A stretch of DNA of 32,000 bases from NCBI GenBank assembly GCA_028713575.1, contig JAQTOB010000005.1:26978-58977 (forward strand), given 5' to 3'. The notes beneath the pieces were generated by a model. That model was not told the DNA's origin, searched no databases, and saw nothing but the letters and a program-made list of their open reading frames with translations. The DNA is from Patescibacteria group bacterium. GTDB taxonomy: Bacteria; Patescibacteriota; Patescibacteriia; UBA2591; UBA6264. Every line of letters begins with the position of its first letter. Position 1 is the first letter of the stretch. Positions 1,175 through 25,862 of the stretch are shown one piece after another. The translations under genes were made by a program, and so were the position numbers.

Positions 1175-1264
1175 AAATGAAAACAATGCTAATCTATGAA
1201 TACGTCCGAATACTACGAATTCGTTGTATTCATCTGGTTAATTCGCATTAATTCGTATCGCTAT

Positions 1265-2644: not shown

Positions 2645-2693
2645 CCCGTTAGAAATTAGATAAATTAACTCTTTTATTTTAACAAAAAAAACA

Positions 2694-2721
2694 TTGACAA
2701 TCAAGTAAAATTTGATATACT
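2694..2721 (+). promoter_or_regulatory. Sigma70-like promoter for RNase P RNA
   Basis: TTGACA (2694-2699), a 16-nt spacer, then TATACT (2716-2721). This places a transcription start about 7-11 nt downstream, at the predicted 5' end of the RNase P RNA P1 stem. Confidence 0.6.
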
Positions 2722-2731
2722 AAAATAAACT

Positions 2732-3606: not shown

Positions 3607-3618
3607 ATTTATAAAAAT

Positions 3619-5331
3619 TTATTTTAAATTTCGCGCTTCAGATTTCTTAAGGTCCATAACCTTAAGTTGTAATTCTTGCTGTCCATTCCATTGATTAATT
3701 CCTAATTGAAATACAATATCAAGGTAATCGCCGGTTTTAAGTTTTTCAATTCCATCGTCAGCGTCAAAATAAATCATTTTTCGACCATTGCCTACAATAA
3801 TTCGGCAATGTCGGCCGTTTTGACCAACCATTTGCCAATTATCCAAATAAACATTCTTAACTAAAAAATTAGGCTGGTCATTGCCTTTGCCAAAAGGTTC
3901 AAATTTTTTTAATTCTTCATACAAACGCCAATTTACTTCTTTTAAATCAACCTGAGCGTCAATTTTTATTCTCGGTTTCAAGTCTTCTTCATTTAATTGT
4001 TCCTGTCCTATCTTTTCAACTTCTCTTTTAAAATTTTCAAAACTCGTTGCCTCTTTTAAAGCCAAACCAAAAGCCACGGCATGGCCGCCAAAACGAGAAA
4101 AATATTTTTTTAACGGCATCAAGGCCTGATAAATATTAAAATTGGGGATAGACCGACCTGAACCGGCTATTTCTGTTTCTTTTTGCGCTAAAATAATGGC
4201 TGGCCGAGAATATTGTTCCAAAGTTTTATTGGCGCTTAAGCCCAAGACACCCTTGGGCCAATTTTGCCCTAAAACTACTAAAATTTTTTCTTTCGGACTT
4301 GGTCCAATTTGATTTTTAATTTCTTCAAAAGTTTTTTCCACTAATTGCTGTCTTTTTTTATTAAATTCGTTTAAAGTTAGGGCCATTTTCCCCGCTTCAT
4401 CTTCATCCTGGGTTAAAATGAGATTAAAGGCCTCATCCGCATGTTTTATTCTTGAAGCCGCGTTTAAACGCGGACTAATCTGATAAGTAATGCTTGTTGT
4501 ATCTAAGTCGCCGAAACTAAGATTACTTTTTTCAATTAATGCTCTTAATCCTTTATTGCTACTTTTATTTAAAACAACTAATCCGTATTTAACTAAAGTT
4601 CTGTTTTCTCCCAATAAAGGCATGCAATCAGCAACCGTCCCAACTGCCACTAAGTCAAGAAGCCATTTTTCCGCTCCTTCGCAATTTTCTATCTGGCACC
4701 TGGAATCATGTAACAGGGCCTGAATTAATTTAAAGGCCACGCCAACGCCAGCCAAAGATTTAAAAGGATATTTTTCTCTGTCCAATTGAGGATTGATAAT
4801 GGCAAAAGCGTCGGGAATTTTTTCTGGCTGGCAATGATGGTCGGTAATAATCACATCTAAACCCGCCTGTTTAGCTAAATCAATTTCTTTGACATTGGTA
4901 ATTCCGCAATCGCAAGTAATAATTAATTTTATTTTTTTGGTTAATAATTTTTTAATTAATTTTTCGTTTAACCCATAACCTTCTGTTTCTCTGTCGGGGA
5001 TATAAGTAACTAAATTTTTTGCTCCTAATTTTTTAAAAATAAAATACAAAACAGCCGTACCCGTAATACCGTCGGCGTCGTAATCTCCGCAAATGGCTAT
5101 TTTTTCATCATTTTCAATGGCCTGATAAATTCGTTCAACTGATTTTTCCATATCCTGTAACAAAAACGGGTTATGAATATCCTGAGAATAATCAGGCATC
5201 AAAAATTCATCTATTTTTTCCTGCGTATCCAAACCGCGATTATATAACAACTGCAAAATTATCGGATTGATTTCCGGAAATTTATCTTCTAGTTTTCTTT
5301 CGTATTCAGGAGCAATGTCCCAGTTTTTCAT
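3619..5331 (-). CDS. recJ: Single-stranded-DNA-specific exonuclease RecJ
   Basis: DHH family motifs are present (GDYDADGITG, ITCDCG, IITDHH) along with the DHHA1 motif GGHAVAFG. The track ORF begins at a TTG (5349); the ATG at 5331 (MKNWDIAPEY) is preferred. Confidence 0.9.
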   Translation of the reverse strand: MKNWDIAPEYERKLEDKFPEINPIILQLLYNRGLDTQEKIDEFLMPDYSQDIHNPFLLQDMEKSVERIYQAIENDEKIAICGDYDADGITGTAVLYFIFKKLGAKNLVTYIPDRETEGYGLNEKLIKKLLTKKIKLIITCDCGITNVKEIDLAKQAGLDVIITDHHCQPEKIPDAFAIINPQLDREKYPFKSLAGVGVAFKLIQALLHDSRCQIENCEGAEKWLLDLVAVGTVADCMPLLGENRTLVKYGLVVLNKSSNKGLRALIEKSNLSFGDLDTTSITYQISPRLNAASRIKHADEAFNLILTQDEDEAGKMALTLNEFNKKRQQLVEKTFEEIKNQIGPSPKEKILVVLGQNWPKGVLGLSANKTLEQYSRPAIILAQKETEIAGSGRSIPNFNIYQALMPLKKYFSRFGGHAVAFGLALKEATSFENFKREVEKIGQEQLNEEDLKPRIKIDAQVDLKEVNWRLYEELKKFEPFGKGNDQPNFLVKNVYLDNWQMVGQNGRHCRIIVGNGRKMIYFDADDGIEKLKTGDYLDIVFQLGINQWNGQQELQLKVMDLKKSEARNLK

Positions 5332-5397
5332 AACATTAAATCCTAACAAAAAAAATTTTAGTCAAAAATCTTTCAAGTAAAAAAAATCAAAATGTGA

Positions 5398-6663
5398 TTA
5401 TTTTTTCCTGTAAATTTTCTTAAAATCAAGATATTGACGCAAAACTTTGGGAACCTTTATTGAACCGTCCTTTTGTTGATAATTTTCCAAAATCGCAATC
5501 AAAATTCGGCCAACAGCAAAGGCGGTGCCGTTTAAAGTATAAACAAATTCCAAATTTCCATCTTTATTGCGATATTTAACATTCAATCGCCGAGCTTGAA
5601 AATCAGTGCAATTGGAAGTGGAATGGGTTTCCCGATATCTATTTTGTCCCGGCATCCAGCATTCAATATCATATTTGGCAGCAGCCGGACCTCCTAAGTC
5701 GCCAGTACACATTTTAATCACCTGATAAGGAATCTTTAAAGCCTGAACCAATTCTTCTTCTCTTTGTAATAAAAATTTATGTTCTTCTTCTGATTTCTCC
5801 GGCAAACAAAAACTAAACATTTCAATTTTATCAAATTGATGGACTCTTAAAATTCCCTTAACGTCTTGTCCATAAGAACCTGCTTCGCGTCGAAAGCAGG
5901 TAGAAAAAGAAACATAGCGCTTAGGCAATTCCCCTTTTTCCAAAATCTCATTCATATGCATTGGCCCGATTGATTGTTCAGAAGTTCCAACTAAATAAAG
6001 ATTATCCTGCGTGGTTTGATAAATTTCTTCTTTTCCTCTTTCTAAATAACCCATAGATTCCATGGCTTTTGGTTTAATCATAACCGGCGGAACCATGGGC
6101 GTAAAACCATGTTTAACTAATGTTTTAAAAGTAAACTGAACCAGGGCGTATTCTAAAAACGCTAATTCATTTTTTAAATAACTGAACCGGCTTCCCGAAA
6201 CCTTGCCCGCGCGATCAATATCAAGTAAATCAAGGTCTTCTCCAATGGCTATGTGGTCTTTAATTTTAAATTTAAACTCAGAAATTTTGCCCCATTTTTT
6301 AATCACTTCATTTTCTTTATCGTTTTCCCCCACTTTAACATAAGGCAAGGCCGGATTGGGGATTTGGAGAAATAATATTTTGAACTTCTTTTCTACTTCT
6401 TCTAATAATTCATCGCTCTTTTTTATTTTTTCAATCAAATCCTTAGCCTGCTTGATTAATTCTTGTTTCCCTTCTCCTTCTAAGGGAGATATTTTTTTTG
6501 AAAATTGATTATGTTGGGATTTTAATTCTTCGTTTTCTTTAATTATCCCTCTTCTTTTTTTATCCAATCTTATAATTTCATCAATATTAATTTTAACTTG
6601 CTTATCCTCGCAGGCTTTTTTTATTTTTTCCGGATTTTGACGAAAAATTTTTATGTCAATCAT
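5398..6663 (-). CDS. serS: Serine--tRNA ligase
   Basis: 421 aa. It has an N-terminal coiled-coil arm followed by a class II core (GSRFSYL, TCFRREAGSYGQDVKGILRVHQFDKIEMF, TLNGTAFAVGR). Confidence 0.95.
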   Translation of the reverse strand: MIDIKIFRQNPEKIKKACEDKQVKINIDEIIRLDKKRRGIIKENEELKSQHNQFSKKISPLEGEGKQELIKQAKDLIEKIKKSDELLEEVEKKFKILFLQIPNPALPYVKVGENDKENEVIKKWGKISEFKFKIKDHIAIGEDLDLLDIDRAGKVSGSRFSYLKNELAFLEYALVQFTFKTLVKHGFTPMVPPVMIKPKAMESMGYLERGKEEIYQTTQDNLYLVGTSEQSIGPMHMNEILEKGELPKRYVSFSTCFRREAGSYGQDVKGILRVHQFDKIEMFSFCLPEKSEEEHKFLLQREEELVQALKIPYQVIKMCTGDLGGPAAAKYDIECWMPGQNRYRETHSTSNCTDFQARRLNVKYRNKDGNLEFVYTLNGTAFAVGRILIAILENYQQKDGSIKVPKVLRQYLDFKKIYRKK

Positions 6664-6678
6664 ATTATTTTATTGTTA

Positions 6679-8121
6679 TTATTCTTTCTTCGGCTTTAAA
6701 GTCGGGAAAAGAATAACTTCTTTAATGTTATGCGTATTGGTTAAAATGGTAACTAAGCGGTCAATTCCAATGCCTTCACCCGCGGTCGGCGGCAAACCGT
6801 ATTTAAGGGCAGTAACAAAATCCTGATCAAAGGGCTGAGCTTCTTCGTCTCCTCGTTCTAAAAGTGTCTGTTGTTCTTTAAATCTTTTTTCTTGTTCCTG
6901 CGGGTCGTTTAATTCACTGAAACCGTTACAAATTTCAAAACCAGAAATTAAAAGCTGAAATCTCTCCACGTAATTGGGTCTTTCTGGTATTTGTTTAGCT
7001 AAAGGTGAAATTTCAATTGGATGATTGATTAAAAACGTCGGATTAATAATTTTCGGTCTAACCGTTTCTTTATAAATTTCATCTATTATCTTCCCTCTAC
7101 CCCATGATTTGTCCACGGAAATTTTTAATCCTTTTGCTTTTTTAATCAAACCGCCTGTTTCTTCTTTATTAAGGTCAATGCCTGTTTGGTCCAATAAGGC
7201 CTGACGATAATCCAAAAAAGGATAGGGTGGCTTAAAATTTATTTTTTGGTCTTGATATTCAAAAATAAATTTATGAGAAATATTTTTTATTAAATAAACA
7301 AACAATTTTTCTGTTAATTTCATTAAATCGCGATAATCGGCATAAGCTTGATAAAATTCTATTTGAGTAAATTCCGGATTATGAGCCCAATCAATGCCTT
7401 CGTTACGAAAACAGCGGGCAATTTCATAAACTTTTTCCAATCCACCCACTACTAATCTTTTTAAATAAAGCTCTGGGGCAATTCTCAAATATAAATCAAT
7501 ATCCAGGGCATGATGATGAGTAATAAAAGGTCTGGCCGCGGCTCCGCCGGCTAAAGATTGTAAAATTGGAGTCTCCACTTCCAAATATCCGCGCTCATTA
7601 AAAAAGTCCCTAATTAATTTCACAATTTTGCTTCTTTTAATAAAAATTCCTTTAACTTCTTTATTAGAAAGAATATCTAAATAACGCTGGCGTAATTTTG
7701 TTTCTACGTCAACTAAACCGTGCCATTTTTCCGGCAAAGGCAAAAGAGATTTAGTTAAAAGCTTCCAATCTGAAACCTGAAGAGTTTTTTCCCCTCGCTT
7801 TGTTTTAAAAAGATTGCCTTTTACCTGCAAAAAATCACCCACATCAATGTTCTTGACAAAAAAGTCATAATTATCCTTTAAATCGTTTTTATTTAAAAAA
7901 ATCTGAAAACGACCGGTTTCATCTTCTAAATCGGCAAAACAAGCTTTGCCGTGCAACCTAATTAAAACTAGCCTCCCAGCCAAAGTGATTGTTTCATCAT
8001 TTTTAAAACTTTCTTCCGCTTGCTGACAAGTAAACGAACGTTGGGAAGAAGAGGGATAAGGATTAATTCCTTTATTTTTTATCTGTTCTAATTTTTTTAT
8101 TCTTTGAATTTCTTCATTCAT
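6679..8121 (-). CDS. lysS: Lysine--tRNA ligase, class II
   Basis: 480 aa. It has an OB-fold N-terminal region and class II motifs ([45 protein letters not shown]). It lies 15 nt upstream of serS on the same strand. Confidence 0.95.
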
Positions 8122-8140
8122 ATTAACATTTTAACAATTT

Positions 8141-8173
8141 AAAAATAAAAAACAAGGTTCCAAAACCCTGTTT
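8141..8173 (-). terminator. Rho-independent terminator downstream of greA
   Basis: On the minus strand, AACAGGGTT-TTGG-AACCTTGTT forms a hairpin (8151-8172) followed by TTTTTTATTTTT. The plus strand also shows a hairpin followed by TTTT, so the element may work in both directions. Confidence 0.6.
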
Positions 8174-8191
8174 TAAGAGACTTTTACTAAT

Positions 8192-8644
8192 TTACTCAAT
8201 AGCAATAATCAAAGCGTCAATTGAACCTTTAGGGGTCATAATCTTCACTTTTTCATTAATTTTTTTGTTTATTAAAGCTTGTCCTAAGGGGGATTGATAA
8301 GAAATCAAACCCTGAAAAGGGTCAGATTCTTCACTGCCCACTAAAGTATAAATTTTTATTTCTTGTTCTGTTTTAATCTTAACCTTTGAACCAATAACAA
8401 CTTGGTCCTTATTCAAAGGGGTTTTTACTGTTTCTGCCGTTCTTAATAAAGTTTCCAATCTGTTAATTTCGCTTTCTGTCCATGCCAATTCTTCTTTGGC
8501 CGTGGTATATTCCGCATTTTCACTCAAATCTCCCAATTCTTTAGCAAATTTAATCCTTTCCGCAATTTGCGGTCTTTTTTCTTTAAGTTCTTGTAATTGT
8601 TTTTCTATTTTTTTTTGTCCATCAAAAGTTATAAATTCCGTCAT
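8192..8644 (-). CDS. greA: Transcription elongation factor GreA
   Basis: It has an N-terminal coiled-coil with GDLSENAEY and a C-terminal FKBP-like domain (SPLGQALI). The ATG at 8644 (MTEFITFDG) is preferred over the track's TTG start at 8653. Confidence 0.9.
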   Translation of the reverse strand: MTEFITFDGQKKIEKQLQELKEKRPQIAERIKFAKELGDLSENAEYTTAKEELAWTESEINRLETLLRTAETVKTPLNKDQVVIGSKVKIKTEQEIKIYTLVGSEESDPFQGLISYQSPLGQALINKKINEKVKIMTPKGSIDALIIAIE

Positions 8645-8712
8645 ATAAATCAATAAACAAACAGAGCCAATGTATTAAAATTTGCTCTTTAAAATTAATA
8701 AATTATATTTTA

Positions 8713-8740
8713 AGTATACGAAATTATAAAAACCTGTCAA
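8713..8740 (-). promoter_or_regulatory. Sigma70-like promoter for greA
   Basis: On the minus strand: TTGACA (reverse complement of 8735-8740), a 16-nt spacer, then TATACT (reverse complement of 8713-8718). The architecture matches the rnpB promoter. Confidence 0.55.
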
Positions 8741-8759
8741 GAAAAATCTGTGGATAAAT

Positions 8760-10667
8760 TTAAAGAGAGAAATATTCTTTAAATATTTCTTGAGCCGCAG
8801 GAACGGCTATCTCCGACCCCTCGCCGCCGTTTTCAATTAAAACCGTCACCACTATTTCCGGATTATTATAAGGAGCAAATCCTGAAAACCAAGCATGGGA
8901 ATTTTTATTTCCTCCAACTTGAGCCGTTCCAGTTTTCCCCGCTATCTCCACGGATAAAGTTGAAAGTCTTCTAGCGCTTCCTTGCGTAACCGTAGCGCGC
9001 AATCCTTTTTTTATTAAATCCAAATGTTTTGTGTCAATAAAATTTTTTCTAATGATTTCCGAAGAAATCAACGTTCTTTTTTTTGTTTCCGAATCGTTTA
9101 TCTCTTTAACCAAACGAGGCTTAAACAGAACTCCACCATTAGCAATTACTGCCATATAATTTGCAACTTGGAGGGGAGTAACAAGAAGGTCGCCCTGACC
9201 AATAGACAAATGATAAGTATCGCCAATGTACCAAATTTCTCCCTTCACTTTTTGTTTCCAAGCGGGCGTAGCCACGAGTCCTTGATTTTCGTTTGGCAAA
9301 TCAATTCCTGTTTTTTGATTCAAGCCAAATAATTTGGCATAATAATTGATTTTTTCTTCTCCCAGGCCCTGAAAATCTCCGTATCCGCCGCCAAGATAAT
9401 AAAAAAAAGTATTTACTGATTCAGCCAAAGCTTTTATTAAGTCTGTCGGTCCATGACCGCCTTGTTTCCAATCAGCAAAAAACCATTTTCCTACCCAGAA
9501 TCCGCCTTGGGAAAAAATAGAAGTCTTTTCGTTAATAATGCCCTCTGCTAAAGCGCCAGCCGCAATAATGGGCTTAATAACCGAGCCTGAAGGATATTCT
9601 CCGGAAATGGCGCGAAAAACCAAGGGGTCATTAATATCATTTAAATAATCTTCTATTTCTCCTTGGATAAAAGAATTATTATCGTATGAAGGATAAGAAT
9701 AAAGAGCCAAAACTTCTCCGTTTTGAGGATTAAGAACAACGACTGTTCCGGCCATGCTGTTGCTTAATTTTAAATATTTTTTTAAAATATTCGCGACTTT
9801 GCTTTGTAAATTGGCGTCAATAGATAAAATTAAATCTTTTCCTGTCTGAGCGGAAACTTGAGAAATAATTTTTTTCTCCTTGCCTAAAGAATTAACTTCT
9901 ATTTTCTTTTGTCCGTCCTTTCCTTTTAACAAATCTTCGTAATAAAATTCCAAACCCGTTTTCCCAATAACATCTGTCATTAAATAATTTGATTTTTGAA
10001 TTAAATCCTCCTGACTTAATTTGCCGGTATAACCCAAAATATGAGATACATCAACATTTAAATATTGTCTTTCTGCTTTAATTTGCAAATTGAAGCCAGG
10101 CAATTCATTTGTCTTCAAAACTAAATCAAAGGCGGTTTGATAATCTATATTTCTTAATAATTCTGTTTCCTGATATGAGCTTGGGGAAAATCTGGACACT
10201 TTCTCTTTTAATTCTAATAAAGATTTTTTTTCCGGTTCTAAAAAAGAAATTAATTTCTCTAAAACTTCTTTTTTCTCTTGTTCGCCTTTCGGCAAATCTC
10301 CGGGAATAACGGTTAAGGAAAAATTGGCCTTATTTTTGACCAACGGCCGATTAAAACGATCATAAATCAGTCCGCGATCAGCCTTTAGGGGCAAAATTCT
10401 TATCCTGTTCCCTTCTGCTATGTTGCGATATTCTTCTCCTTTGGTGATTTGTAGCCAAAAAAGGCGGAAAAATAAAATCAACATTAAAACAAAAACAAAA
10501 ATAAAGAAAAAATAAATCCTTCCTTTTTTCACCGGTGGCGCTAAGGCCGCCTTTTCCGGCACTTCACTGGGTAAATAGCCGCCCTCTTCCAAACGATTTG
10601 AAAAATTCGGAATTTTTCTGTCTTTAATTTTCTGATCTGATGTTTGAATAAGAAAAGGGTCTTTCAT
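8760..10667 (-). CDS. mrdA: Penicillin-binding protein 2 / peptidoglycan D,D-transpeptidase
   Basis: 635 aa. It has an N-terminal TM anchor, a PBP dimerisation region and the transpeptidase motifs S-V-I-K (SGSVIKP), S-V-N (AESVNTFF) and KTGTA. It lies directly downstream of mreC-mreD. Confidence 0.85.
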   Translation of the reverse strand: MKDPFLIQTSDQKIKDRKIPNFSNRLEEGGYLPSEVPEKAALAPPVKKGRIYFFFIFVFVLMLILFFRLFWLQITKGEEYRNIAEGNRIRILPLKADRGLIYDRFNRPLVKNKANFSLTVIPGDLPKGEQEKKEVLEKLISFLEPEKKSLLELKEKVSRFSPSSYQETELLRNIDYQTAFDLVLKTNELPGFNLQIKAERQYLNVDVSHILGYTGKLSQEDLIQKSNYLMTDVIGKTGLEFYYEDLLKGKDGQKKIEVNSLGKEKKIISQVSAQTGKDLILSIDANLQSKVANILKKYLKLSNSMAGTVVVLNPQNGEVLALYSYPSYDNNSFIQGEIEDYLNDINDPLVFRAISGEYPSGSVIKPIIAAGALAEGIINEKTSIFSQGGFWVGKWFFADWKQGGHGPTDLIKALAESVNTFFYYLGGGYGDFQGLGEEKINYYAKLFGLNQKTGIDLPNENQGLVATPAWKQKVKGEIWYIGDTYHLSIGQGDLLVTPLQVANYMAVIANGGVLFKPRLVKEINDSETKKRTLISSEIIRKNFIDTKHLDLIKKGLRATVTQGSARRLSTLSVEIAGKTGTAQVGGNKNSHAWFSGFAPYNNPEIVVTVLIENGGEGSEIAVPAAQEIFKEYFSL

Positions 10668-10687
10668 TACATTTTATATTAATTATT

Positions 10688-11218
10688 TTAAATTCTAATT
10701 TTAGAAAATTTAATCAAATTCAATGCCCAAAAAAGAAAAACAATCAACAAACCATTTAAAACAATTGCTTGGAAAACATTTAGCCAATAAAATCCGTTAA
10801 AATAAATTTGGGGAATCGTTGACTGGAAAAAAGAAGAAATAAAAATAAAAAAAGAAATTAAAAATTGATAAATAAAACCCGCGACAAGGCCAAAAATTAA
10901 GACGCTTAAAATTTTATTGGTGTTAAATTTCAATAAAAAAAATCTTTTTGAAAGATAAGTGACCGTTAATAGGCTTAAAAAAAACGTTCCGGGAAAAAAA
11001 ATAGAATAACAATCCAATAAAAATCCGCCAATAATGGCGGTAAAAAAAACATATCTTATTTTTTGTGAAAAAAAATCTTTATCTTTGCTGGCTTTAAGTA
11101 AAAAAACCATTATAAAAATAAAAATAAAAGAAACTCCTAAAGGAATAATAGGCAAGGAAATTTCCAGAAGAAAAATAATAAAAATAAGAATAATTAAAAA
11201 AACAAAATTGAAAAACAT
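10688..11218 (-). CDS. mreD: Rod shape-determining protein MreD (putative)
   Basis: 176-aa polytopic membrane protein. It starts 5 nt after mreC and ends 20 nt before pbp2. The call rests mainly on position and size. Confidence 0.6.
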   Translation of the reverse strand: MFFNFVFLIILIFIIFLLEISLPIIPLGVSFIFIFIMVFLLKASKDKDFFSQKIRYVFFTAIIGGFLLDCYSIFFPGTFFLSLLTVTYLSKRFFLLKFNTNKILSVLIFGLVAGFIYQFLISFFIFISSFFQSTIPQIYFNGFYWLNVFQAIVLNGLLIVFLFWALNLIKFSKIRI

Positions 11219-11223
11219 GTTAT

Positions 11224-11976
11224 TTAAAAAGGTAAAATTACGGAAACTATCTTGAAATCTGTTTGGAAAAGCGGTCTAATAAGGATTTCTTGAAAAATAG
11301 CATTGGGCTTTTTGTCAATTTCCGCCACTTGACCAATAATTATCCCCCAACGAATATTGTCCTGTCCGGAGGTAATCACTCCGTCGCCTATTTTAATTTC
11401 TTTATCTAAAGGAACGTATTTCATTTTTAAATTTAGGCCATATTCGCCTTGAATAATCCCGGAAATGGTCTCTGATTTTTCATTTTTTTTTGAAGAACCA
11501 ATATCTGTTAAAAATTCCTGAGAAATAATATCGGCGGCGATTGACAAATGTTGATCAAAAATCGGATGAAAATATGAGACCTCTTTTTCCACTTTATTAA
11601 TTATCCCTATTAAAACTCCATTTTCGTCCAAAACCGCTAATCCTGACCTTAATCCTTGTTTTTCTCCCCGGTCTAACAAAAACCAAGTAATCCCGGATTC
11701 CGTTCGCCGGCCAATAACATTGGCCATAATAAATTTATCTTTTGATTTAGTTAAAAAATCAAGGTATTCTCTTAAAATTTCATTTTCTAATTGTGTATTT
11801 TTTAATTGAACGTTCTCTATTTTAATCTGCCGGCAAAAATCATCTTCAATTTCTCCTCTATTGGATTGATAAAGCAATTTCTGCTCTGGTTTTAAAATTA
11901 TATAAAAAAGATTCTCTCCTTTTAGAAGAAAAATAATAAAAAATAAAAAAATAACAAAAATAAAATATTTTCTCAT
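11224..11976 (-). CDS. mreC: Rod shape-determining protein MreC
   Basis: 250 aa. It has an N-terminal TM, a coiled-coil segment, and MreC beta-barrel motifs (IGDGVITSGQD..., GIIIGQVAEI). Confidence 0.8.
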   Translation of the reverse strand: MRKYFIFVIFLFFIIFLLKGENLFYIILKPEQKLLYQSNRGEIEDDFCRQIKIENVQLKNTQLENEILREYLDFLTKSKDKFIMANVIGRRTESGITWFLLDRGEKQGLRSGLAVLDENGVLIGIINKVEKEVSYFHPIFDQHLSIAADIISQEFLTDIGSSKKNEKSETISGIIQGEYGLNLKMKYVPLDKEIKIGDGVITSGQDNIRWGIIIGQVAEIDKKPNAIFQEILIRPLFQTDFKIVSVILPF

Positions 11977-12155: not shown

Positions 12156-14279
12156 CTATTGAATCTGTGAAGTAGTGACGTTGCTGTTAATTATCGGTCC
12201 GTCTGGATAAACTTCATCAACGGAAATTTCAATCACCTCCTCCCACTTAAATCCCAAGTTTTCAAATATTTCACCTGAAGCAAAAACTCTTTTTTGTCCT
12301 TCTTGTATTAAATAAACGCCAGGCTGGTCAGGATACTTGATTAAAGTTCCGTTTAAACGACCAATAATTAATTCTCCGTCAATATAAGTTTCAGTATCAG
12401 GGATTTCAATTATATCTTCCCACTTAAATCCAAGCTTTTCAAATATTTCACCCGAAGCAAAAGCTCTTTTTTTATTGCTTTCAAGAAAATAAACGCCAGG
12501 TTGGTCAGAATACTTAATTAAAGTCCCGTCTGGCCGACCTTGGGGCTGAACAACAAACTGAAAACTATTAATCAACATTTCAAATGTCGTTTTAAAATTG
12601 GCTTCTTCCTCGGTTCCAACATTATAAGAAATGATGTATATTTTATTGTCCTTGTTAATATAAATTGTTGAATGTTCCGGATTCCAAACCGCTTCTTGAG
12701 TATTAACTAAGGTTGGATACAATGATGATTCGTCAACATGCGGCGATTGTCTTAAATACCAGTCCCGAGGAGATAAATTTTCCGGATTATTTTCCACAGT
12801 CACAGAAAAAAATTCTCCGGTATTGGTAATAACTAAAATTTCCTGATTATCAGTTTCAGGAATAGCTCGAGCCAGCCAAGAAGCGGGATAAAAGAAACTA
12901 TATGAATAGGTCGGATTAGTATAAACATTAATCAGACCCGAAGCCGCTAATGTAATTTCATTTATCTGTGTGGGGTCATTTAAATTGATTATTTCCTGGC
13001 CATCGGGATTACCGTCAATATCTGAATCGGGATTATTGATTTCTGTTTTAAAAACTCCTTCTTCCACATCTGTTAATCCGTCTTTGTCTGTATCAAGACT
13101 GGCCGGAATGTTAGGGGCAATTTGAAAAGTTTCCGCTTTGGGCAAGGTTTTTTCTTTTTCAATAATAATCGCCCAGATATCAGCCGGTAAATGTTCCAAA
13201 TCATTAATAATCAATGTTGTTTTATCTTCGCTAAAAAACGAAGGAACAGTTGTCCAAATATCATCTTTAAAATATCCAATTGCCAGGTCTGATTGCCATT
13301 CTTCTTCTATTAAATCTTGGGTGTAAAAAATCTTTAAATTACAGGGTTTTTTAAAAACCAAATCTACAACTTCTTGTGTTTCTTCTTCCTCTAATTTTTG
13401 CGCAAAAAATCTATAAAGACCGCCAATTATCTTATAATCTTTTTCATATTCTTCGGTTAATGGTTCTGTCTCCATACTTAATCCCACGTCCGAATCCATG
13501 GCGTCTTCTGGTAAATAAAATTCGGCAAAAGAAACAACTTCTTCTGTTTCATTTTTAAATTCTTTAATTAATGTTTTTTCTAAAAAAATGGGTTCTTCTT
13601 CTATTTCTTCTTCTATTTCTTCTTCTAATAATTCTTCTTTGGGTTTTTCTGTTTCTTCTCCAGATTCTTCTGTTTCTTCCTCTGGTAAAACCGTTTCTCC
13701 GCTTATTTCTTCTGTTTCCGCGACTGGTTTGACTTCTGTTTTAGGAGAGAAGAATCCCCTGGTCCATAAATAAAAACCAGCGACGCCGATAATAATTAAA
13801 AATAAAACTAAAATAATAATCAAAAAATTCAATTTTCCCCCTTTTTTACCCGGCATTTTTGATTTTGTTTTTTTAAATTTATCAGACATGACATATAATT
13901 CTTCCTCTGTGGAGCCGCCTGTTTTTGTTGCCGTTTCAATAATCTCCCTTTTTGCCGCTTCTGGCGTATCAAACTGGGATGTTGGCATGGATTCCATTGG
14001 TTTAGGGCTTTGAGATGCGGGAGCTGAAGATGATATCTCGGCCAAACTCATATCTTCTTGAATAGAAGATGTCTGATTTGAAAAACTTTGTTCAGCCGGC
14101 AATTCCGGAGATGCTTGTTCCGGTATCATCTGTTCTGTTAAAGGCGAAGATTCTTTTGAAACAGAAGCATTGTCCTGGATTGTTGGATTTGATTCCTGAG
14201 ACGGCGGAGTTATTTGAGCATTGGCCGGACCAGGTTGATTAGATGTTAATGGATTTGTTTGTTGGTCTTCTTCAAACAT
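12156..14279 (-). CDS. Single-pass membrane protein with a low-complexity N-terminus, an acidic linker, TSP3-type Ca-binding motifs and a duplicated C-terminal domain
   Basis: 707 aa. About 158 aa at the N-terminus are P/S/Q/E-rich. A TM follows (LNFLIIILVLFLIIIGVAGFYLW), then an E-rich linker (EETEESGEETEKPKEELLEEEIEEEIEEE). The motifs DTDKDGLTDVEE and DSDIDGNPDG are present, and two ~58-aa repeats sit at the C-terminus. Confidence 0.85.
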   Translation of the reverse strand: MFEEDQQTNPLTSNQPGPANAQITPPSQESNPTIQDNASVSKESSPLTEQMIPEQASPELPAEQSFSNQTSSIQEDMSLAEISSSAPASQSPKPMESMPTSQFDTPEAAKREIIETATKTGGSTEEELYVMSDKFKKTKSKMPGKKGGKLNFLIIILVLFLIIIGVAGFYLWTRGFFSPKTEVKPVAETEEISGETVLPEEETEESGEETEKPKEELLEEEIEEEIEEEPIFLEKTLIKEFKNETEEVVSFAEFYLPEDAMDSDVGLSMETEPLTEEYEKDYKIIGGLYRFFAQKLEEEETQEVVDLVFKKPCNLKIFYTQDLIEEEWQSDLAIGYFKDDIWTTVPSFFSEDKTTLIINDLEHLPADIWAIIIEKEKTLPKAETFQIAPNIPASLDTDKDGLTDVEEGVFKTEINNPDSDIDGNPDGQEIINLNDPTQINEITLAASGLINVYTNPTYSYSFFYPASWLARAIPETDNQEILVITNTGEFFSVTVENNPENLSPRDWYLRQSPHVDESSLYPTLVNTQEAVWNPEHSTIYINKDNKIYIISYNVGTEEEANFKTTFEMLINSFQFVVQPQGRPDGTLIKYSDQPGVYFLESNKKRAFASGEIFEKLGFKWEDIIEIPDTETYIDGELIIGRLNGTLIKYPDQPGVYLIQEGQKRVFASGEIFENLGFKWEEVIEISVDEVYPDGPIINSNVTTSQIQ
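12189..12539 (-). repeat. Tandem in-frame duplication (two ~58-aa units) at the C-terminus of the 707-aa protein
   Basis: The units are GRPDGTLIKYSDQPGVYFLESNKKRAFASGEIFEKLGFKWEDIIEIPDTETYIDGELII (12363-12539) and GRLNGTLIKYPDQPGVYLIQEGQKRVFASGEIFENLGFKWEEVIEISVDEVYPDGPII (12189-12362). DNA similarity is clearly visible, for example ttttcaaatatttcacc(t/c)gaagcaaaa. Confidence 0.85.
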
Positions 14280-14365
14280 AAGCGCTTTATTAAATTAAAT
14301 TAAAAATGTAAATATTAAAGATTAAAATGACAGTGTTAAAATTTAAAAATCAAAAATTTAAATAG

Positions 14366-14468
14366 AATTAACCTAATTAACCTAATTTCTAATTGACCTA
14401 ATAAAATCTCAATTATTAGAATAATTAGGTTAATTAAAATAATTAGAATAATTTAGGTGAGGTTAATT
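14366..14468. repeat. Array of direct and inverted copies of a 13-bp AATTAACCTAATT motif in the spacer between the 191-aa and 707-aa genes
   Basis: AATTAACCTAATT occurs at 14366-14378 and 14375-14387 (overlapping). A degenerate AATTGACCTAAT lies at 14391-14402. The inverted copy AATTAGGTTAATT lies at 14423-14435. A degenerate inverted copy, AGGTTAATT, lies at 14460-14468. Confidence 0.6.
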
Positions 14469-14518
14469 TTAATCTTGCTTTCTTTTTTCCTTCCCTTGCT
14501 GTTTTTAGTTTTTACTCT

Positions 14519-15094
14519 TTATTCTAATTTTTCAATTTCTTTTTGCAAATCAAATAATTTTGCTTCCGGGTCGGAATTATTCGGATTTTTATTCTGTCTC
14601 ACCTCTTCTCCGTCTTTGATCCCGTCCCCGTCGCTATCTTGATCCCAAGGATCGGTCAGATAAATCCTGACTTCTTCCTTGTCCGAAAGCCCATCATCGT
14701 CCGTATCAAAATCTTCTTGGTCGGTTCCCAGTTCTTGTTCTTCTGAATCAGTTAAGCCGTCGTTATCGGTATCAATATCTTCTTTTGAAATTTCCGTAAC
14801 AGCCGGGGTAGTGGTAACGAAAGCCCCTTGTTCTTCAATTAATGTTTCTATTTCTGTTTCTCTTGTCATTCCCGATTTCTTGAAGAAGAAAAACCAAGTC
14901 CCTAAAACCAGTAAAACCAAGACAATAAAAATAACTAAAATTTTTATAATGACCCTGAAATCAAATCTTTTTTTAAACTTTGGTTCTTGCTTCCGCGTTT
15001 GAATTGATTGTCCTTCAATCTGGGTAACAGAAGTTTTGGCTTCTACTTCCACTTCACTGAAAATATCCTCGGTTTTATTTTGTTGATTAAGCAT
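14519..15094 (-). CDS. Single-pass membrane protein with three TSP3-type Ca-binding repeats
   Basis: 191 aa. A TM (IIKILVIFIVLVLLVLGTWFFFF) is followed by DIDTDNDGLTDSEE, DFDTDDDGLSDKEE and DQDSDGDGIKDGEE. The gene starts only 23 nt after the stop of the giant gene. Confidence 0.8.
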   Translation of the reverse strand: MLNQQNKTEDIFSEVEVEAKTSVTQIEGQSIQTRKQEPKFKKRFDFRVIIKILVIFIVLVLLVLGTWFFFFKKSGMTRETEIETLIEEQGAFVTTTPAVTEISKEDIDTDNDGLTDSEEQELGTDQEDFDTDDDGLSDKEEVRIYLTDPWDQDSDGDGIKDGEEVRQNKNPNNSDPEAKLFDLQKEIEKLE

Positions 15095-15117
15095 ATATTT
15101 TATATTTTATTTGTTCT

Positions 15118-24100: not shown

Positions 24101-24894
24101 TATTTAGATTGAAAATCAAGAATCGCTTTGGGAAAATAAGCGCGATAAGTTTTGTTAATATCAAAAATTTCCGGATGTTTAAAAATAAGAACATTATTTC
24201 TAATTTGCCAGTTTCCGTTAACATTTTCCACTTTAAGTTCTCCTGTTTCGGCTAATTCTTGAACAGAGCTTGTTTTAACCGCTCGATTAAAAATCGGCTG
24301 CACCGCGGAACAAAGATAAACATCCTGATTATAATTCTGTTCCAGCCCACCATGCGTGGTTTCTATTTTCTTAATTTTAAAAGCATTGGGCGATGGAGAA
24401 CAACTTGAATCGGGAATATTGCAAGATTTATTAACAGAACAGCGATACCCAAACCCGCAACATTCGCCGGGAATACAGTCGCTTATTGGTATTGGTTCTG
24501 GGTCCAAAATAAAGCCAAGCTTTTCCATAACAAAACTGGTTAGGGCATAGGCGAAAACAATAATTAACAAACCGATTAGTCCATTAACAATGATTTTCTT
24601 CGCTTTTTCCACTTTTTCCGAAGAACCGCCAGAGGTTATCCAAATAAAACCGCCAATAATCATGATGATTACGGCGGCGATGCCCAAAAGACTAAGAATA
24701 ATTCTGACAATTCGGCCGATTATTTGCGGCAAAGAAGCTTGGCCATAACCAACGGTTTGCCCAAAATTTGACAATTCATCATTTCCCAGGTCCAATTGCT
24801 GGGCTTTGGCCGGAATAGAAATAAAAAATAAGCAACAAATTGTAAAAGTCAGAAAAATAATTTTAAAAATATTCCTTGCTCTATGAGAAGTCAT
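15118..24894 (-). CDS. Giant (3258 aa) surface protein built from a signal peptide, a VirB2/TrbC-like pilin hairpin, Ig-like, IPT/TIG, propeller-like and pilin-like modules, and a Cys-rich tip
   Basis: A single uninterrupted ORF runs from ATG (24894) to TAA (15118). The N-terminus has a signal peptide ending in AKA-QQ. Two TM helices follow, flanking SGGSSEKVEKAKK; this is the pattern of small T4SS pilins of the TrbC/VirB2 type. At least five SbsA/Big_5-like starts are visible (for example PPEIVSAYP...NVSRSPLIEVKFSEPID and PRVSGYQPLGDNVCRNTLVSATFDQ). Six IPT/TIG-like units are visible (for example ISPAQGPRGTWITIKGNNF and LQPNYGKTGTKITIKGVNFG). Three Big_2-like units are present. The last 514 aa contain 82 Cys by hand count. 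Confidence 0.9.
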   Translation of the reverse strand: MTSHRARNIFKIIFLTFTICCLFFISIPAKAQQLDLGNDELSNFGQTVGYGQASLPQIIGRIVRIILSLLGIAAVIIMIIGGFIWITSGGSSEKVEKAKKIIVNGLIGLLIIVFAYALTSFVMEKLGFILDPEPIPISDCIPGECCGFGYRCSVNKSCNIPDSSCSPSPNAFKIKKIETTHGGLEQNYNQDVYLCSAVQPIFNRAVKTSSVQELAETGELKVENVNGNWQIRNNVLIFKHPEIFDINKTYRAYFPKAILDFQSKYLQQCLAAGGCSETASHFIWDFTTGEQNDEIPPEIVSAYPIFNSEDPSYPDQNVSRSPLIEVKFSEPIDITTVSDENDYPLEENIWLAALDGQNGNVVQILSKENFQINGDSNGFKLKLRDGNLLESFIWYRVHIEGIEDLCLNSMTEAAEWEFQTNDRVPGIKSYYPNNKTVCPDTDISVVFETQMYNSLVTMEITDGRDNFSISLNPSELEPPYEKRISNGVFKVSDFGAPVNNHFRIFTFNPDNNLKDNTEYKVKVFTDLIINQQGNFLSGEWSFKTADLENCLCSPWISHITPSQGLRGECLTIYGQCFKGTNWQTAEPIRIEFILNDITTLSIIGGFDNNYLTTVVPEIYVKGDRPNIQAVIQYQSGEQMNSNQVDFYVNSDNQADGPCLLSINPSIGYPEETKVNLNGLRFNSPANSSKVIFYNNQEAVYSNWADQNINGAIVPLNAQNGPVTVVNEKGKSNGLPFDILSHLNKPGGVCYQSYYCSENPMYECESPVYSCLHEPEDTCRCCCNVSPNSCPAPLECTAGQGSCTGADRGLCCGCRNDDQCGSLLGCALNDPNRCCYPRPNVVNHNPVGNNVCLNTAVEIDFDSRLNPNSLNNNISFKKLASLTTAKNGKDYEAVEKTKCIYETDIYTGSCENNYWDYEFTISQKGEHNLYVETSNYFGEIKDLGEDNKCSEPGIQHHIRVFVDNEEKESFCADASLVSQFSYISLGEMTEGPHLIRLLWDNDWTQPGAGDSNLRIHQVGIMQTNEEKTGFNLVVNNDNNKIILYPDNCQLEPTSIYEIKLIGGQDGRGIKSDLGVSMNDYTWQFSTGAEDRFCLVSQVRVNPEKAEVTSFKENVVYVGQAYDFNNNQVCVAGFDWQSSDITIASLSRQTGLATTASPVSGSIEGETANIFADASNIVGSGEFISILNPPIIKSINPISGSNNPKVPTYVTIFGSNFGFTQGENTVKFGNIVAEIGCNNWSDKEIVAIVPQGLIIDKDYPLTVVNAEQGTSNEIDFTVNNEFHPAICELQPNYGKTGTKITIKGVNFGDRQENSYVVFGKGNNDQQIITNSGKWSNEKIEIIAPAISEGQAGIEVWVPSPLETDHPLKPSNTVTFYQEPLITGISPAQGPRGTWITIKGNNFTSEQGVVYFRYDGQDYPSDPLPDYCPNKWTDKEIIVAVPQELPTVAVNQDFYNLQIYLKPKESVNSNLFDWRLNKNPLPPALCQLIPDNGYEGFYPLTIKGLGFDLKPGEQERKLIFNPGKETSSLTWLSDMEINNITVPQGAQSGSIKVNKKAKINCRLECSNLSFAGQCFGDWIEVCDDIFLESNPLSFDLVDLGGCGFFGTLGTRDGLPIKIGEKINDYPPTEPFDSQSVGVLATDGKYLYGKSWTNYDRWSPGTYDCASEQGCPDNVITKIGTGYQGTIAGQVYGDLANVHSSLTMTYYPDGYLYNGYTTDGYHIERVNAQTGSVDTIVNIPAGLIVRDTGQTATGPYGGHLITSDGEYIYNLAYSLSSGYNGFRVRVFDPNDNWKLIREWDSRGSDYGYDEDSFYTDGIIADGDYVYAIEWTGKIRKMNAQTGQVVSEWTTDQKLKTNPDGNNADFISGQYDWINNKIWLGDLVPQERCDQCPIGSAYYCHCTPAYVYHYACRKNLPWVIEESGCEQEPQSPSPYPLSSEICRNALVSARFNKKVNGLNNSNIIVKKCNAGKDLDKNSCLIDVSGIISLASLNNKGFIFTPTSSWEQNYWYQVILKSGPTGIKDINGSQLDGNKNSIEEGSPFDDYIWYFKTNDQATNSPSTAVKVREEIPDGQRPGIITLPGTRNYLALALGPDCQILNHNSFAWGWESSKTGVVTVSGLVNAATATAIGLGETEIKATATSSIEGESSSGNINLIVAKAPRVSGYQPLGDNVCRNTLVSATFDQLMDEKTISSETIKLFGEYKAAQSGLICEKRPLGESNDIYKFFAHLWENVKKIFIWEAVAAKVGEGDDLWRCELPISIEIQKINNETVIKIKTQELFDQGRKYVVVLSGLLKNQYGLDLGQKQSWEFIPDELCLLSKVSIAPDNIFFEKKDQTEDLIARTYDDKGNEIYGISNVYDWTWSWESSNPATVSVSGSVLEKETITAENKNGQSQITATAKIIGSNPIVSVSGQSQVDVFLCENPWGPYEDEETNFRIKYCRDTKEKNNLLPQLQPPAISIGKEENLLKEFIFPIEYSGDIIGLKIIKNNRRLSPAKWYQENVLNLGSPQNIVIDGYYGLQEGRTTYVGAVNVDFGDFGRLAYINNYIYLISYNDKASDEVKDIFKQLLNNWKFNINLSNSSEKEEIQRDLLRIYDLEEIKEKVEAYKQNYGFYPALGQGTYVLGKTNSLWPSWQNTLGKILGASLPLDPVNKFNGSCANCSDKPDYQCKNTCYNSLTKVFEHPVGSHVYQYYAPEDPACLGFYYTLGANMEYSDRQVVWQGEDKIYINESDQVGITNYYYSSEEAPVCNDGILQCGEFCDTEEVALPPHASCTCNSTYTGWVCHSDWENCNSNWADGCEKKINGSSCGSDSDCCSGNCLDSVCRPANWQCSNIDDLCCDVNHRFKASTVVCGPKKGDCDFEEKCTGESAKCPPDLIAQIYQRVICRPVDGPCDVEEICEGSVNCSSINVKKPDGAKCGVCQICQSGKCKPTTAYAAKATALGCTSGDEGCRYCDKNDSYGNYCKTYDDNEHHACGPCQICQSGKCKPTTAYAADATALGCTSGGDQRCRYCDNGTCKVYTNNEHGACGVCQACNPSGSCSGQTVYAADATALGCTSGDQGCRYCDNGTCKTYILGQHSCSICHTCNADGICKAVTGQGARPYLKCGSGNCVDGVCCSLNYCSYNNQCYAPGNCHPVTPQQKCSNGKWVSSCGDGAVNCGEICDGQTNVPCGNCNLGLRDCFSCSWGLCQGGGACVPGETEAEAKTCRCKICNSNCEWNSESMCQSGDSCTGCSSCGGCTGEECCCYDRKKHTYYKGVCSRL
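15670..16155 (-). repeat. Three tandem Cys-rich repeat units (57, 53 and 52 aa) inside the giant gene
   Basis: The units begin CGVCQICQSGKCKPTTAYAAKATALGCTSGDEGCRYCD..., CGPCQICQSGKCKPTTAYAADATALGCTSGGDQRCRYCDNGTCK... and CGVCQACNPSGSCSGQTVYAADATALGCTSGDQGCRYCDNGTCK.... At the DNA level, near-identical ~50-bp blocks (ggcggcataagcggtYgttggtttgcatttaccgctttgacaaatttggcaa) occur at about 15925-15975 and 16097-16147. Confidence 0.85.
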
Positions 24895-24977: not shown

Positions 24978-25430
24978 TTAAAAAAGTTCTTTTTCCACCA
25001 ATTCTTTAACTTTATCTCCTTCTACTCTCCCCTTTAGACGAGACATCGCCAGTCCCATCACTTTGCCAAAATCTTGACGCTCGCCAGCTCCGATTTCTTT
25101 AATAACCTCAAGAATCACTGTTTTTATCTCTTCCTCAGAAATTTCCGTTGGCAAATATCTTTTCAGAATGTCAATCTCTTTTTTTTCTTTAACCACCAAA
25201 TCTTCTCTATTGCCTTGTTTATATAGTTCTATGGCTTCATTTCTTTTTTTAGCTTCTCTTCTAATCAATTCCAAAACATTTTCTTCTTTAAGCTCTTTTT
25301 TTTGGGCATTCAATTCTATTTCCTTGTTATGAATAACCGTTTTTAAGCCCCGCAAAACAATTAAATCTTCGGCCCTTTTTTGTTTCAAGGCCTCTTTAAA
25401 ATTTTTCTCTATTATTTCCAAAAGAGTCAT
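24978..25430 (-). CDS. yqeY: GatB/YqeY domain-containing protein
   Basis: 150-aa helical protein with the typical YqeY N-terminus (LKQKRAEDLIVLRGLKTVIHNKEIE...) and ...YLP...SEEEI....VI.E.GA...DFGKVMG..M. It lies downstream of rpsU, as in Firmicutes. Confidence 0.85.
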   Translation of the reverse strand: MTLLEIIEKNFKEALKQKRAEDLIVLRGLKTVIHNKEIELNAQKKELKEENVLELIRREAKKRNEAIELYKQGNREDLVVKEKKEIDILKRYLPTEISEEEIKTVILEVIKEIGAGERQDFGKVMGLAMSRLKGRVEGDKVKELVEKELF

Positions 25431-25643: not shown

Positions 25644-25862
25644 TTATTTAATTTTGCCAATTTTTTTAAAAAAATTCATTTTTTCCGTGCGTTCTTTTTT
25701 CATTAAAGCGCTGGATTTCTGGGCCTTTTTGCTTTTCGGCTTGGAAAAAAATTTTTTCTCCTTGGAATTATTAATTACGCCACTGCGTTTTATTTGTTCG
25801 CTGAATCTCCTTAAAAAAACGTTTAAAGGTTCATTTTGTTTTCTTTTAATTTCTATTGCCAT
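25644..25862 (-). CDS. rpsU: 30S ribosomal protein S21
   Basis: 72-aa basic protein. MAIEIKRKQNEPLNVFLRRFSEQIKRSGV...FFSKPKSKK matches the bS21 pattern (..v.v..nE.le.aLrRFkr...k.G...e.rkr.fyekPs.kr). Confidence 0.85.
   Translation of the reverse strand: MAIEIKRKQNEPLNVFLRRFSEQIKRSGVINNSKEKKFFSKPKSKKAQKSSALMKKERTEKMNFFKKIGKIK

Follow-up and report, generated by a model that had tools for sequence, protein, structure and literature searches.

A co-conserved gene trio encoding a giant protein and two predicted bitopic proteins: a candidate surface apparatus of Patescibacteria

Introduction

A large part of bacterial diversity falls within the Patescibacteria, also known as the candidate phyla radiation (CPR), most of which are believed to live attached to other cells; outside the Saccharibacteria, to our knowledge, almost nothing is known of the molecules used for this attachment. 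A stretch of 32,000 nucleotides (nt) from one member of the group (assembly GCA_028713575.1, contig JAQTOB010000005.1, positions 26,978 to 58,977; hereafter, the window) contains a giant gene followed by genes for proteins of 191 and 707 amino acids (aa). Do these three genes (the trio) encode parts of one surface apparatus, and does this apparatus serve attachment? A preliminary description of the window, made from its sequence, had suggested that the two small proteins act as membrane-anchored, Ca2+-dependent partners or scaffolds of a giant adhesin, and had taken the source, correctly, for a CPR bacterium. According to the analysis presented here, the trio can be read as one conserved cell-envelope surface apparatus of Patescibacteria, most likely used in attachment or recognition, with membrane topology, Ca2+ binding, docking and adhesion as its inferred components; the probability assigned to this reading is about 0.5.

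Results

Conservation of the trio across Patescibacteria

The list of open reading frames (ORFs) reproduced exactly the layout given in the preliminary description, i.e., three co-directional minus-strand genes for proteins of 3258, 191 and 707 aa (Table 1), with intergenic gaps of 23 nt (15095-15117, giant/191-aa) and 239 nt (14280-14518, 191-aa/707-aa), which together span 12,739 nt, or 39.8% of the window.

To survey this arrangement, one genome per GTDB species was searched with 25 aligned orthologs of the 707-aa protein, and 80 loci (numbered with the prefix L) were returned. The ORFs of these loci were labelled by BLASTP and hidden Markov model searches against the window proteins, and the relatives of the 707-aa protein carrying thrombospondin type 3 (TSP3) and PsbP-like regions, hereafter anchors, were confirmed by tblastn. 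Such an anchor was found in 76 of the 80 loci, the remaining four being unspecific TSP3 matches. Where at least 1.5 kb of upstream sequence was available, a small TSP3 gene lay directly upstream of the anchor on the same strand in 62 of 63 loci, with a median gap of 13.5 nt; where at least 6 kb was available, a homolog of the giant lay upstream in 53 of 54, and in the remaining locus an ORF of 1742 aa weakly matches the conserved module of the giant described below. The gaps within the trio were mostly below 50 nt in these relatives, and two or three small TSP3 genes were present in many lineages. The loci span Uhr-, Kerfeld-, Komeili-, Falkow-, Magasanik-, Buchanan- and Jacksonbacteria, as well as other Patescibacteria. 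Thus, the order and orientation of the trio, whose conservation in relatives the preliminary description had proposed as a check on its idea, are kept in dozens of species-level genomes, and the loss of co-conservation that would have spoken against a partnership was not seen, since no anchor without a giant was found where the upstream sequence suffices.

The usual array is rpsU/yqeY-trio-ybeY-dgkA-ftsA-ftsZ. Judged by Pfam identities, ybeY/dgkA followed the trio in 63 of 67 loci, with ftsA within 3 kb in 62 of 67, and yqeY was located directly 5' of the giant wherever that end had been captured (L002, L014, L016, L017, L025 and L081). Only in the lineage of the window (L001-L003, L081 and L082) is the downstream flank formed by mreC-mreD-pbp2-greA; the order in the close relative L081 is yqeY-giant-195 aa-693 aa-mreC-mreD-pbp2. 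Because the three genes were kept together while the flank changed from ybeY to mreC, hitch-hiking with a neighbour is a poor explanation of their adjacency, and it is strongly supported by this genomic evidence that they form a functional unit.

Two departures from the common arrangement were recorded. Alone among the testable loci, L001 (anchor at 5708-8122) lacks a separate small TSP3 gene; there, the anchor ORF of 804 aa begins 65 nt after the giant, which suggests gene loss or fusion. In L007 (9590-11616; 332 + 333 aa) and L138, two anchor genes with TSP3 and PsbP-like regions stand in tandem.

A PsbP-like domain shared by the giant and the anchor

No part of the giant is better conserved than a module at aa 2395-2740 (Table 1), matched in 53 of 56 loci, for which AlphaFold2 (AF2) gave a confident model with a predicted local distance difference test score of 79 and a predicted template modelling score of 0.74. 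The module has no Pfam family, no match in the PDB by sequence (single or profile) and no significant match by Foldseek against the PDB. As to a possible pseudopilin domain in the module, the type II secretion family T2SSG (PF08334) gave one weak match, in 1 of 22 homologs, and there was no structural match. A homolog search with the single sequence returned 2 matches, and with a profile 40, mostly fragments. In metagenomes, a profile of the module matched 1569 cluster representatives out of 1.84 billion at E ≤ 1e-3, 1332 of them at E ≤ 1e-30; given these 1332 representatives and the lack of a Pfam or PDB relative, the module constitutes a large unannotated family.

Within this module lies a domain homologous to one in the 707-aa protein. 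The window's giant and 707-aa protein were aligned by BLASTP with E=3e-6, the profile of the giant module also matched the PsbP-like domain of the anchors (E 6e-11 to 2e-6), a profile built from anchors only matched 12 giants, and hhalign of the two families gave a probability of 96.7% (E=3.5e-10). The order of secondary-structure elements also agrees between the AF2 models of the module and of the 707-aa PsbP-like domain. The giant's copy has no Pfam match of its own; the copy in the 707-aa protein matches PsbP_2 (PF18933) with 27.3 bits in the whole protein and 38 bits when the domain is taken alone (cut-off 27). The best Foldseek hit of the latter was CyanoP (2lnj; E=3e-6, TM(target) 0.56), together with PsbP (1v2b), the E-values for CyanoP and PsbP ranging from 3e-6 to 8e-4; lower-ranked hits included Apa of Mycobacterium tuberculosis, Tsi3 and SciW, an Eag chaperone. 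The giant and the 707-aa protein therefore carry homologous PsbP-like domains, and this shared domain is a candidate docking contact between them.

The trio seen from the side of the module

The association was also examined in reverse, by scanning metagenome contigs with the giant module and retaining the 27 loci in which the 3' end was complete and the downstream sequence reached at least 3 kb. Nine of them carry all three genes (with ybeY, dgkA or ftsA downstream), seven the small TSP3 gene only, and eleven neither partner. These outcomes go with protein size: TSP3 genes and a PsbP anchor follow each of the six complete module ORFs of at least 2300 aa, and the module ORFs are of 1291 aa or less in all 18 loci without a PsbP anchor. 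The link between giant and anchor is thus strict for the giant subfamily and not for the module itself. Accordingly, that part of the partner idea of the preliminary description by which the three genes act as a unit is borne out by their co-conservation, but the partnership is not universal when viewed from the module.

Short module proteins of 260-1291 aa with no PsbP anchor nearby, which form a paralog class of their own, were found in L103, L104, L108, L115, L119, L120, L136, L145, L150, L156 and L157, and their genes often adjoin bacA or PAP2-family genes. In L119, ORFs of 1217 aa and 777 aa stand in tandem, neither with a Pfam match, amid unrelated housekeeping enzymes.

Architecture of the giant protein

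The giant is predicted to begin with a signal peptide and two hydrophobic helices, as expected of the T4SS_pilin family, which its N-terminus matches above the cut-off (Table 1); the hydropathy peaks lie at aa 7-31, 57-91 and 98-124, with a Lys-rich loop between the two helices of the hairpin. This assignment is supported by the NCBIfam model of the mycoplasma Mbov_0395 pilin-like conjugal transfer protein, which gave 30.1 bits there, under its cut-off of 40. Homologous giants behave similarly with T4SS_pilin (42.5 bits in L017, 32.1 bits in L058 and 25.6 bits, just under the cut-off of 26.6, in L081), and the pilin-like N-terminus is kept in the related giants whose 5' end was captured. In four loci, a second ORF of the pilin type (525-745 aa) lies directly 5' of the giant (L006, 4-1833; L014, 804-2738; L015, 1195-3432; L062, 3-1580); these ORFs match the giant's pilin-like N-terminus and represent tandem T4SS_pilin-anchored proteins.

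Beyond the hairpin, Pfam recognized immunoglobulin (Ig)-like domains (Big_5, 1e-32; TIG, 4e-28) and further weak Ig matches, and no Pfam family was assigned to the propeller-like stretch. The strict motif D.D.D[GN]..D..E is absent from the giant. Similarly, no Pfam or NCBIfam families for RTX repeats, a type I secretion (T1SS) signal or the regulators LapG/LapD were found in the giant or its neighbours.

Conservation among the 56 homologous giants is patchy, being concentrated in the TIG block (aa ~1150-1550), in aa 1900-2150 and, above all, in aa ~2400-2710; the L081 giant is 47% identical over 73% of the length only. The Cys-rich tail of the window's giant has almost no homology in these 56 relatives, and its disintegrin-like match of 31.9 bits is under the cut-off of 35.1. 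In the relatives, the region after the module carries quite different domains: PT-HINT in L081; DUF4215 Cys repeats with VWA in L058, L073 and L077; and, in further lineages, Big_7/He_PIG/Big_13, CarboxypepD_reg, a sortilin-like propeller or nothing recognisable. The PT-HINT/intein-splicing-like domain of the L081 giant (JGI 3300009374; 231-9362) occupies aa 2895-3017 (E=5e-13) and is followed by ~25 residues, which hints at autoproteolytic C-terminal processing in that lineage.

The two small proteins

Each small protein has one hydrophobic segment, as the preliminary description had it, and Lys/Arg residues are commoner on the N-terminal flank of this transmembrane (TM) segment (7 versus 3 in the 191-aa protein, 5 versus 3 in the 707-aa protein), so by the positive-inside rule an N-in/C-out topology, also proposed earlier, is predicted for both. 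Of 75 anchors, 69 have exactly one TM-like segment, as do 95 of 109 small neighbours, and an N-in orientation is predicted for 66 of 74 anchors. A single-TM layout with a presumably extracellular TSP3 region is therefore supported as a family trait.

The reported DxDxDGxxDxxE motifs were recovered by the strict pattern, three in the 191-aa and two in the 707-aa protein. TSP3_bac (PF18884) matches the 191-aa protein with 59.6 bits (cut-off 25); in the window's 707-aa protein it is sub-threshold, and it was recorded for the orthologs P0039 and P0042-P0045. The 707-aa protein has ~50 full-length orthologs, and both DxDxDG motifs are invariant in the 25 that were aligned. By analogy with solved TSP3 repeats (Kvansakul 2004 and Dai 2017, both as cited in later work), the TSP3 regions would bind Ca2+ and be rigid in the Ca2+-bound state. 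The NCBIfam matches at the level of repeats or TM segments (CglD, MtsD, SAG1386/EF1546, IcmG/DotF and FliL) were all far under their cut-offs and were not taken as family membership.

The AF2 model of the 707-aa protein is confident for the beta-sandwich, the PsbP-fold domain and the two C-terminal repeats. These repeats are modelled as beta-beta-beta-alpha-beta; the sub-family of the window has them, and most distant anchors lack them. A PDB sequence search returned no meaningful match for them, and Foldseek matched them weakly to the repeat region of EccB1 (E ~6e-3).

On the predicted cytoplasmic side, the anchors share the juxtamembrane motif [IVL]-[YHF]-[VT]-M-P-x-[KR]-[FY], with 29 matches among the 2089 locus ORFs, all 29 in anchors; the window's protein carries the variant LYVMSDKF. 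The motif was seen in anchors of L002-L072, with I-[YH]-[VT]-M-P-x-K-F as its family-specific form. The anchor of the window is 55% identical to that of L081, as compared to 56% for MreC and 65% for PBP2.

The spacer and the genomic surroundings

The spacer between the genes of the 191-aa and 707-aa proteins, earlier called repeat-bearing, does contain 9-nt AATTAACCT units and inverted copies, the latter with 21-nt arms (14366-14386 and 14415-14435) that are 90% complementary. With its 239 nt against the median of 13.5 nt at the equivalent junction in relatives, it is a length outlier, and a promoter-like site for the 707-aa gene lies inside it on the minus strand (14339-14312). The spacer may be a lineage-specific regulatory insertion. 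Its interpretation as a structured RNA or riboswitch was rejected, the fold having z = -0.47 relative to shuffled sequences, with no Rfam match.

The housekeeping flanks named in the preliminary description, mreCD-pbp2 and yqeY-rpsU, are all in place (Table 1), with the qualification that mreD is assigned by its expected position and four membrane segments, as the protein has no Pfam match. The possibility that the trio lies near the replication origin (parAB nearby; orientation switch at ~30.7 kb) was considered and dropped, with 8 DnaA boxes against 9.1 expected, and it is also weakened by the ATP synthase subunits encoded at the right end of the window. Additionally, an RNase P RNA of bacterial class A was detected at 2732-3207 on the plus strand (125.5 bits, full model), whereas every gene around it is minus-strand; at its 3' end it runs ~15 nt into the stop-proximal part of an RNase H-like gene (3193-3606, minus).

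Table 1 Features of the trio and its flanks in the 32,000-nt window
Feature	Position (nt)	Strand	Residues (aa)	Remarks
rpsU, upstream flank	25644-25862	minus		Ribosomal_S21, 30.9 bits
yqeY, upstream flank	24978-25430	minus		Housekeeping
Giant gene	15118-24894	minus	3258 in total	Signal peptide, VirB2-like hairpin, Big_5/TIG repeats, beta-propeller-like stretch, conserved module, Cys-rich tail
Giant, signal-peptide-like N-terminus	24802-24894	minus	1-31	Cleavage-like site ...IPAKA/QQ (cleavage at the slash)
Giant, T4SS_pilin (PF18895, VirB2/TrbC-like)	24529-24741	minus	52-122	Pfam, 35.3 bits, cut-off 26.6
Giant, conserved module	16675-17712	minus	2395-2740	PsbP-like domain, 31-residue helix and beta-sheet domain
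Giant, PsbP-like domain	17191-17478	minus	2473-2568	Inside the conserved module
Giant, module helix		minus	2577-2607	31 residues
Giant, Cys-rich C-terminal region	15121-16617	minus	2760-3258	79 Cys in 499 residues; lineage-specific
191-aa bitopic protein	14519-15094	minus	191 in total	~46-aa predicted cytoplasmic head, TM, linker, three TSP3 repeats
191-aa protein, TM	14885-14956	minus	47-70	Strong hydrophobic segment, Kyte-Doolittle hydropathy >3.1
191-aa protein, TSP3 repeats	14603-14773	minus	108-164	Strict D.D.D[GN]..D..E, three copies
Spacer	14280-14518			AT-rich, 239 nt, 9-nt direct repeats AATTAACCT and inverted copies
707-aa bitopic protein (anchor)	12156-14279	minus	707 in total	Disordered, predicted cytoplasmic N-terminus, TM, Glu-rich linker, beta-sandwich, TSP3, PsbP-like domain, repeats
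707-aa protein, juxtamembrane motif LYVMSDKF	13875-13898	minus	128-135	Predicted cytoplasmic
707-aa protein, TM	13761-13829	minus	151-173	Kyte-Doolittle hydropathy >3.1
707-aa protein, beta-sandwich	13140-13577	minus	235-380	Confident in AF2 model
707-aa protein, TSP3 motifs	12993-13094	minus	396-429	Two strict copies
707-aa protein, PsbP-like domain	12555-12941	minus	447-575	PsbP_2 and Foldseek
707-aa protein, C-terminal repeats	12180-12527	minus	585-700	Two, ~60 aa each
mreC, downstream flank	11224-11976	minus		Housekeeping
mreD-like, downstream flank	10688-11218	minus		Four-segment membrane protein in the expected position
pbp2, downstream flank	8760-10667	minus		Housekeeping

Discussion

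The observed gene order, domain content, PsbP-like homology and co-conservation are compatible with the following organization of the apparatus. The signal peptide would direct export of the giant, and the VirB2-like two-helix hairpin would retain it in the cytoplasmic membrane; in pilins of the VirB2/TraA type, such a hairpin leaves both termini outside. The remaining ~3100 residues would then lie outside the cell as a stalk of Ig-like and propeller-like parts, the conserved module and a lineage-variable tip, which in the window would be a disulfide-rich, disintegrin-like region. The small proteins, N-in/C-out, would expose acidic linkers followed by TSP3 repeats that, by analogy, could fold around Ca2+ into stiff rods, and the PsbP-like head of the 707-aa protein would dock on the giant's module, so that the distal region of this protein would be fastened to the membrane or wall, while the conserved cytoplasmic motif may link the complex to a cytoplasmic partner. 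The most likely function would be to attach to, or recognize, another cell or a surface, with the variable tip setting the specificity: the Ig/TIG repeats, the Cys-rich or VWA tips, DUF4215, the variable post-module region and the analogy with known receptors all suggest that the giant is an adhesin. A more elaborate version, namely, a vertically inherited recognition organelle of a large branch of Patescibacteria, consisting of a giant fibre on a co-opted conjugative-pilin hairpin with a fast-evolving tip that determines host or partner specificity, docked through the PsbP pair to Ca2+-stiffened stalks and coupled by the I-H-T-M-P-x-K-F motif to the division/elongation machinery, appears unlikely in its entirety.

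Several points weigh against the reading of the trio as an attachment apparatus. The TSP3 stretch, like the N-terminal 150 residues, is of low confidence in the AF2 model of the 707-aa protein, and the positive-inside signal is only moderate in the relatives of the 191-aa type (40 of 62). Co-transcription is not assured in the window, because a gap of 239 nt with a promoter-like site precedes the 707-aa gene. The short module proteins without an anchor, with 11 of 27 loci lacking both partners, mean that the module is not strictly dependent on the anchor. Finally, the anchor evolves about as slowly as MreC, which fits an envelope-structural role equally well, and the location of the trio in a core housekeeping array, by ftsA/ftsZ or mreCD/pbp2, fits such a role too.

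These last two points lead to an alternative in which the trio forms a housekeeping scaffold of the envelope, for instance a fibre spanning the wall, a coat similar to an S-layer or a spacer determining envelope architecture, and works in step with division or elongation instead of binding a host. Through the cytoplasmic tails of the bitopic TSP3 proteins, a giant associated with the wall would then be connected to the divisome or elongasome. Such a scaffold, which we regard as somewhat unlikely, would account for the fixed site between rpsU/yqeY and ybeY-dgkA-ftsA-ftsZ (63 of 67 loci), or next to mreC-mreD-pbp2 here, for the presence of the trio in nearly every testable locus among those related to the window, for an anchor conservation similar to that of MreC and GreA, and for a cytoplasmic juxtamembrane motif confined to anchors (29 of 29 matches among 2089 ORFs). 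The weak Foldseek match of the C-terminal repeats to EccB1 (E ~6e-3) points the same way; peptidoglycan binding has been proposed for the EccB1 repeats. However, the domains of the giant turn over fast (47% identity over 73% of the length relative to L081, with different tips), which is typical of proteins facing other organisms. The VWA, disintegrin-like and DUF4215 domains also serve in adhesion or recognition, and the proximity of ftsAZ or mreCD could simply reflect a stable, well-expressed chromosomal site. A coincidental neighbourhood of three genes with no functional link could invoke the spacer with its own promoter-like site and the occurrence of TSP3 repeats in unrelated surface proteins (L078-L080), but it is contradicted by synteny, as order, orientation and tight spacing are kept in dozens of divergent species despite the change of flank, and the giant and anchor share a homologous domain; it is hardly credible.

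The N-terminus of the giant raises another possibility, i.e., that a pilin-adhesin fusion is assembled by a Patescibacteria type IV secretion system (T4SS) into a pilus or tip displaying the passenger of 3100 residues, with the TSP3 proteins as assembly or anchoring factors. The N-terminal 125 residues do resemble the CPR VirB2/TrbC pilins (PF18895), with a signal peptide and two helices, T4SS_pilin being over the cut-off and the pilin-like conjugal transfer protein matching below it, tandem T4SS_pilin ORFs precede the giant in L006, L014, L015 and L062, and, according to a recent preprint, VirB2-like pilins occur widely, often in arrays, in those CPR genomes that have a chromosomal T4SS (bioRxiv 10.1101/2025.01.22.634366). 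The pilins described there are small, and their genes are near virB4 in many assemblies, whereas the giant has an extracellular passenger of ~3100 residues, and neither VirB4, VirB6 nor any other T4SS component was recognized among the window ORFs of at least 80 aa or labelled in the flanks of the related loci; the fusion of a pilin to a giant passenger is not mentioned in the searched passages of the preprint. A two-helix hairpin can also be a plain membrane anchor. Assembly into a pilus is considered improbable. Still less can be said for contact-dependent effector delivery of the polymorphic-toxin type, with the variable C-terminus as payload. The PT-HINT (pretoxin Hint) domain at the end of the L081 giant (aa 2895-3017, E=5e-13) and the high variability of the post-module region might be cited in its favour, but the ~25 residues after that Hint domain leave no toxin domain there, neither toxin nor immunity families were detected in the giant of the window or in the genes next to it, and the other tips are Ig, VWA or Cys-rich modules, so that this possibility is very unlikely.

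The attachment or recognition apparatus that is thus preferred has its closest functional analogue in TraA/TraB, the adhesin pair for outer-membrane exchange of Myxococcus xanthus, in which TraA, a receptor with a rigid Cys-rich stalk and a variable recognition part, forms a 1:1 complex with the TSP3-containing TraB, a neighbouring partner from the same operon that anchors the complex to the envelope, at the wall (PMC12045341). TraB, however, is an outer-membrane beta-barrel with OmpA in a diderm, whereas the trio partners are predicted to be bitopic proteins of the cytoplasmic membrane, and TraA is a protein of ~700 aa with a MYXO-CTERM anchor, whereas the giant has 3258 aa and an N-terminal VirB2-like hairpin. 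DUF4215 is the repeat type of the TraA stalk, and relatives of the giant carry such Cys-rich repeats as well. No sequence homology beyond repeats is shared, and no OmpA, beta-barrel, PA14 or MYXO-CTERM family was found in the three trio proteins; the trio does not belong to the TraA/TraB family, and the analogy is functional only. Other Myxococcus proteins, the lipoproteins CglD and MtsD (NF033765, NF047639; adhesion-dependent gliding and cell-cell cohesion), also have TSP3 repeats in common with the trio (E 3e-6 to 2e-3), but scores of 16-26 bits against cut-offs of 400-800 mean that the likeness is confined to the repeats.

The giant repetitive adhesins of diderms, such as LapA, SiiE and MpIBP, are very long surface proteins with Ig-like repeats, an N-terminal retention element and, towards the C-terminus, ligand-binding modules including VWA, and are Ca2+-dependent. 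The overall logic is common to them and the trio, but their defining features (RTX, T1SS signal, LapG/LapD) were not found in the trio, whose putative Ca2+-binding motifs reside on separate small proteins and whose envelope is of the monoderm type of CPR. With the PsbP/CyanoP/Mog1/DUF1795 fold (PsbP_2, PF18933), the 707-aa protein agrees in both sequence and fold over aa 447-575; unlike PsbP and CyanoP, this domain has no photosystem context and would form an extracellular head on a TSP3 stalk, with a homologous copy inside the giant. The giant proteins with dockerin and TSP3 domains reported in a study of Omnitrophota giant genes are a different system.

A description of this gene cluster was not found in the open-access literature searched on Patescibacteria/CPR surface proteins. 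As far as these searches tell, three of its elements are apparently undescribed: the conjugative-pilin-like hairpin as the putative anchor of a 3000-residue protein, the ~300-residue module with no Pfam or PDB counterpart and more than 1300 sequence clusters, and the PsbP-like domain common to a giant and its small partner. A surface receptor with TSP3 anchoring partners is already known in kind; the type of anchor, the module and the shared PsbP-like domain are what is new. The variable tip could serve as a host-range marker in metagenomes. Moreover, being large, conserved in order in many candidate phyla-level groups and located at a core-array site, the trio may be put forward as a concrete, experimentally tractable candidate for a principal surface apparatus in this group.

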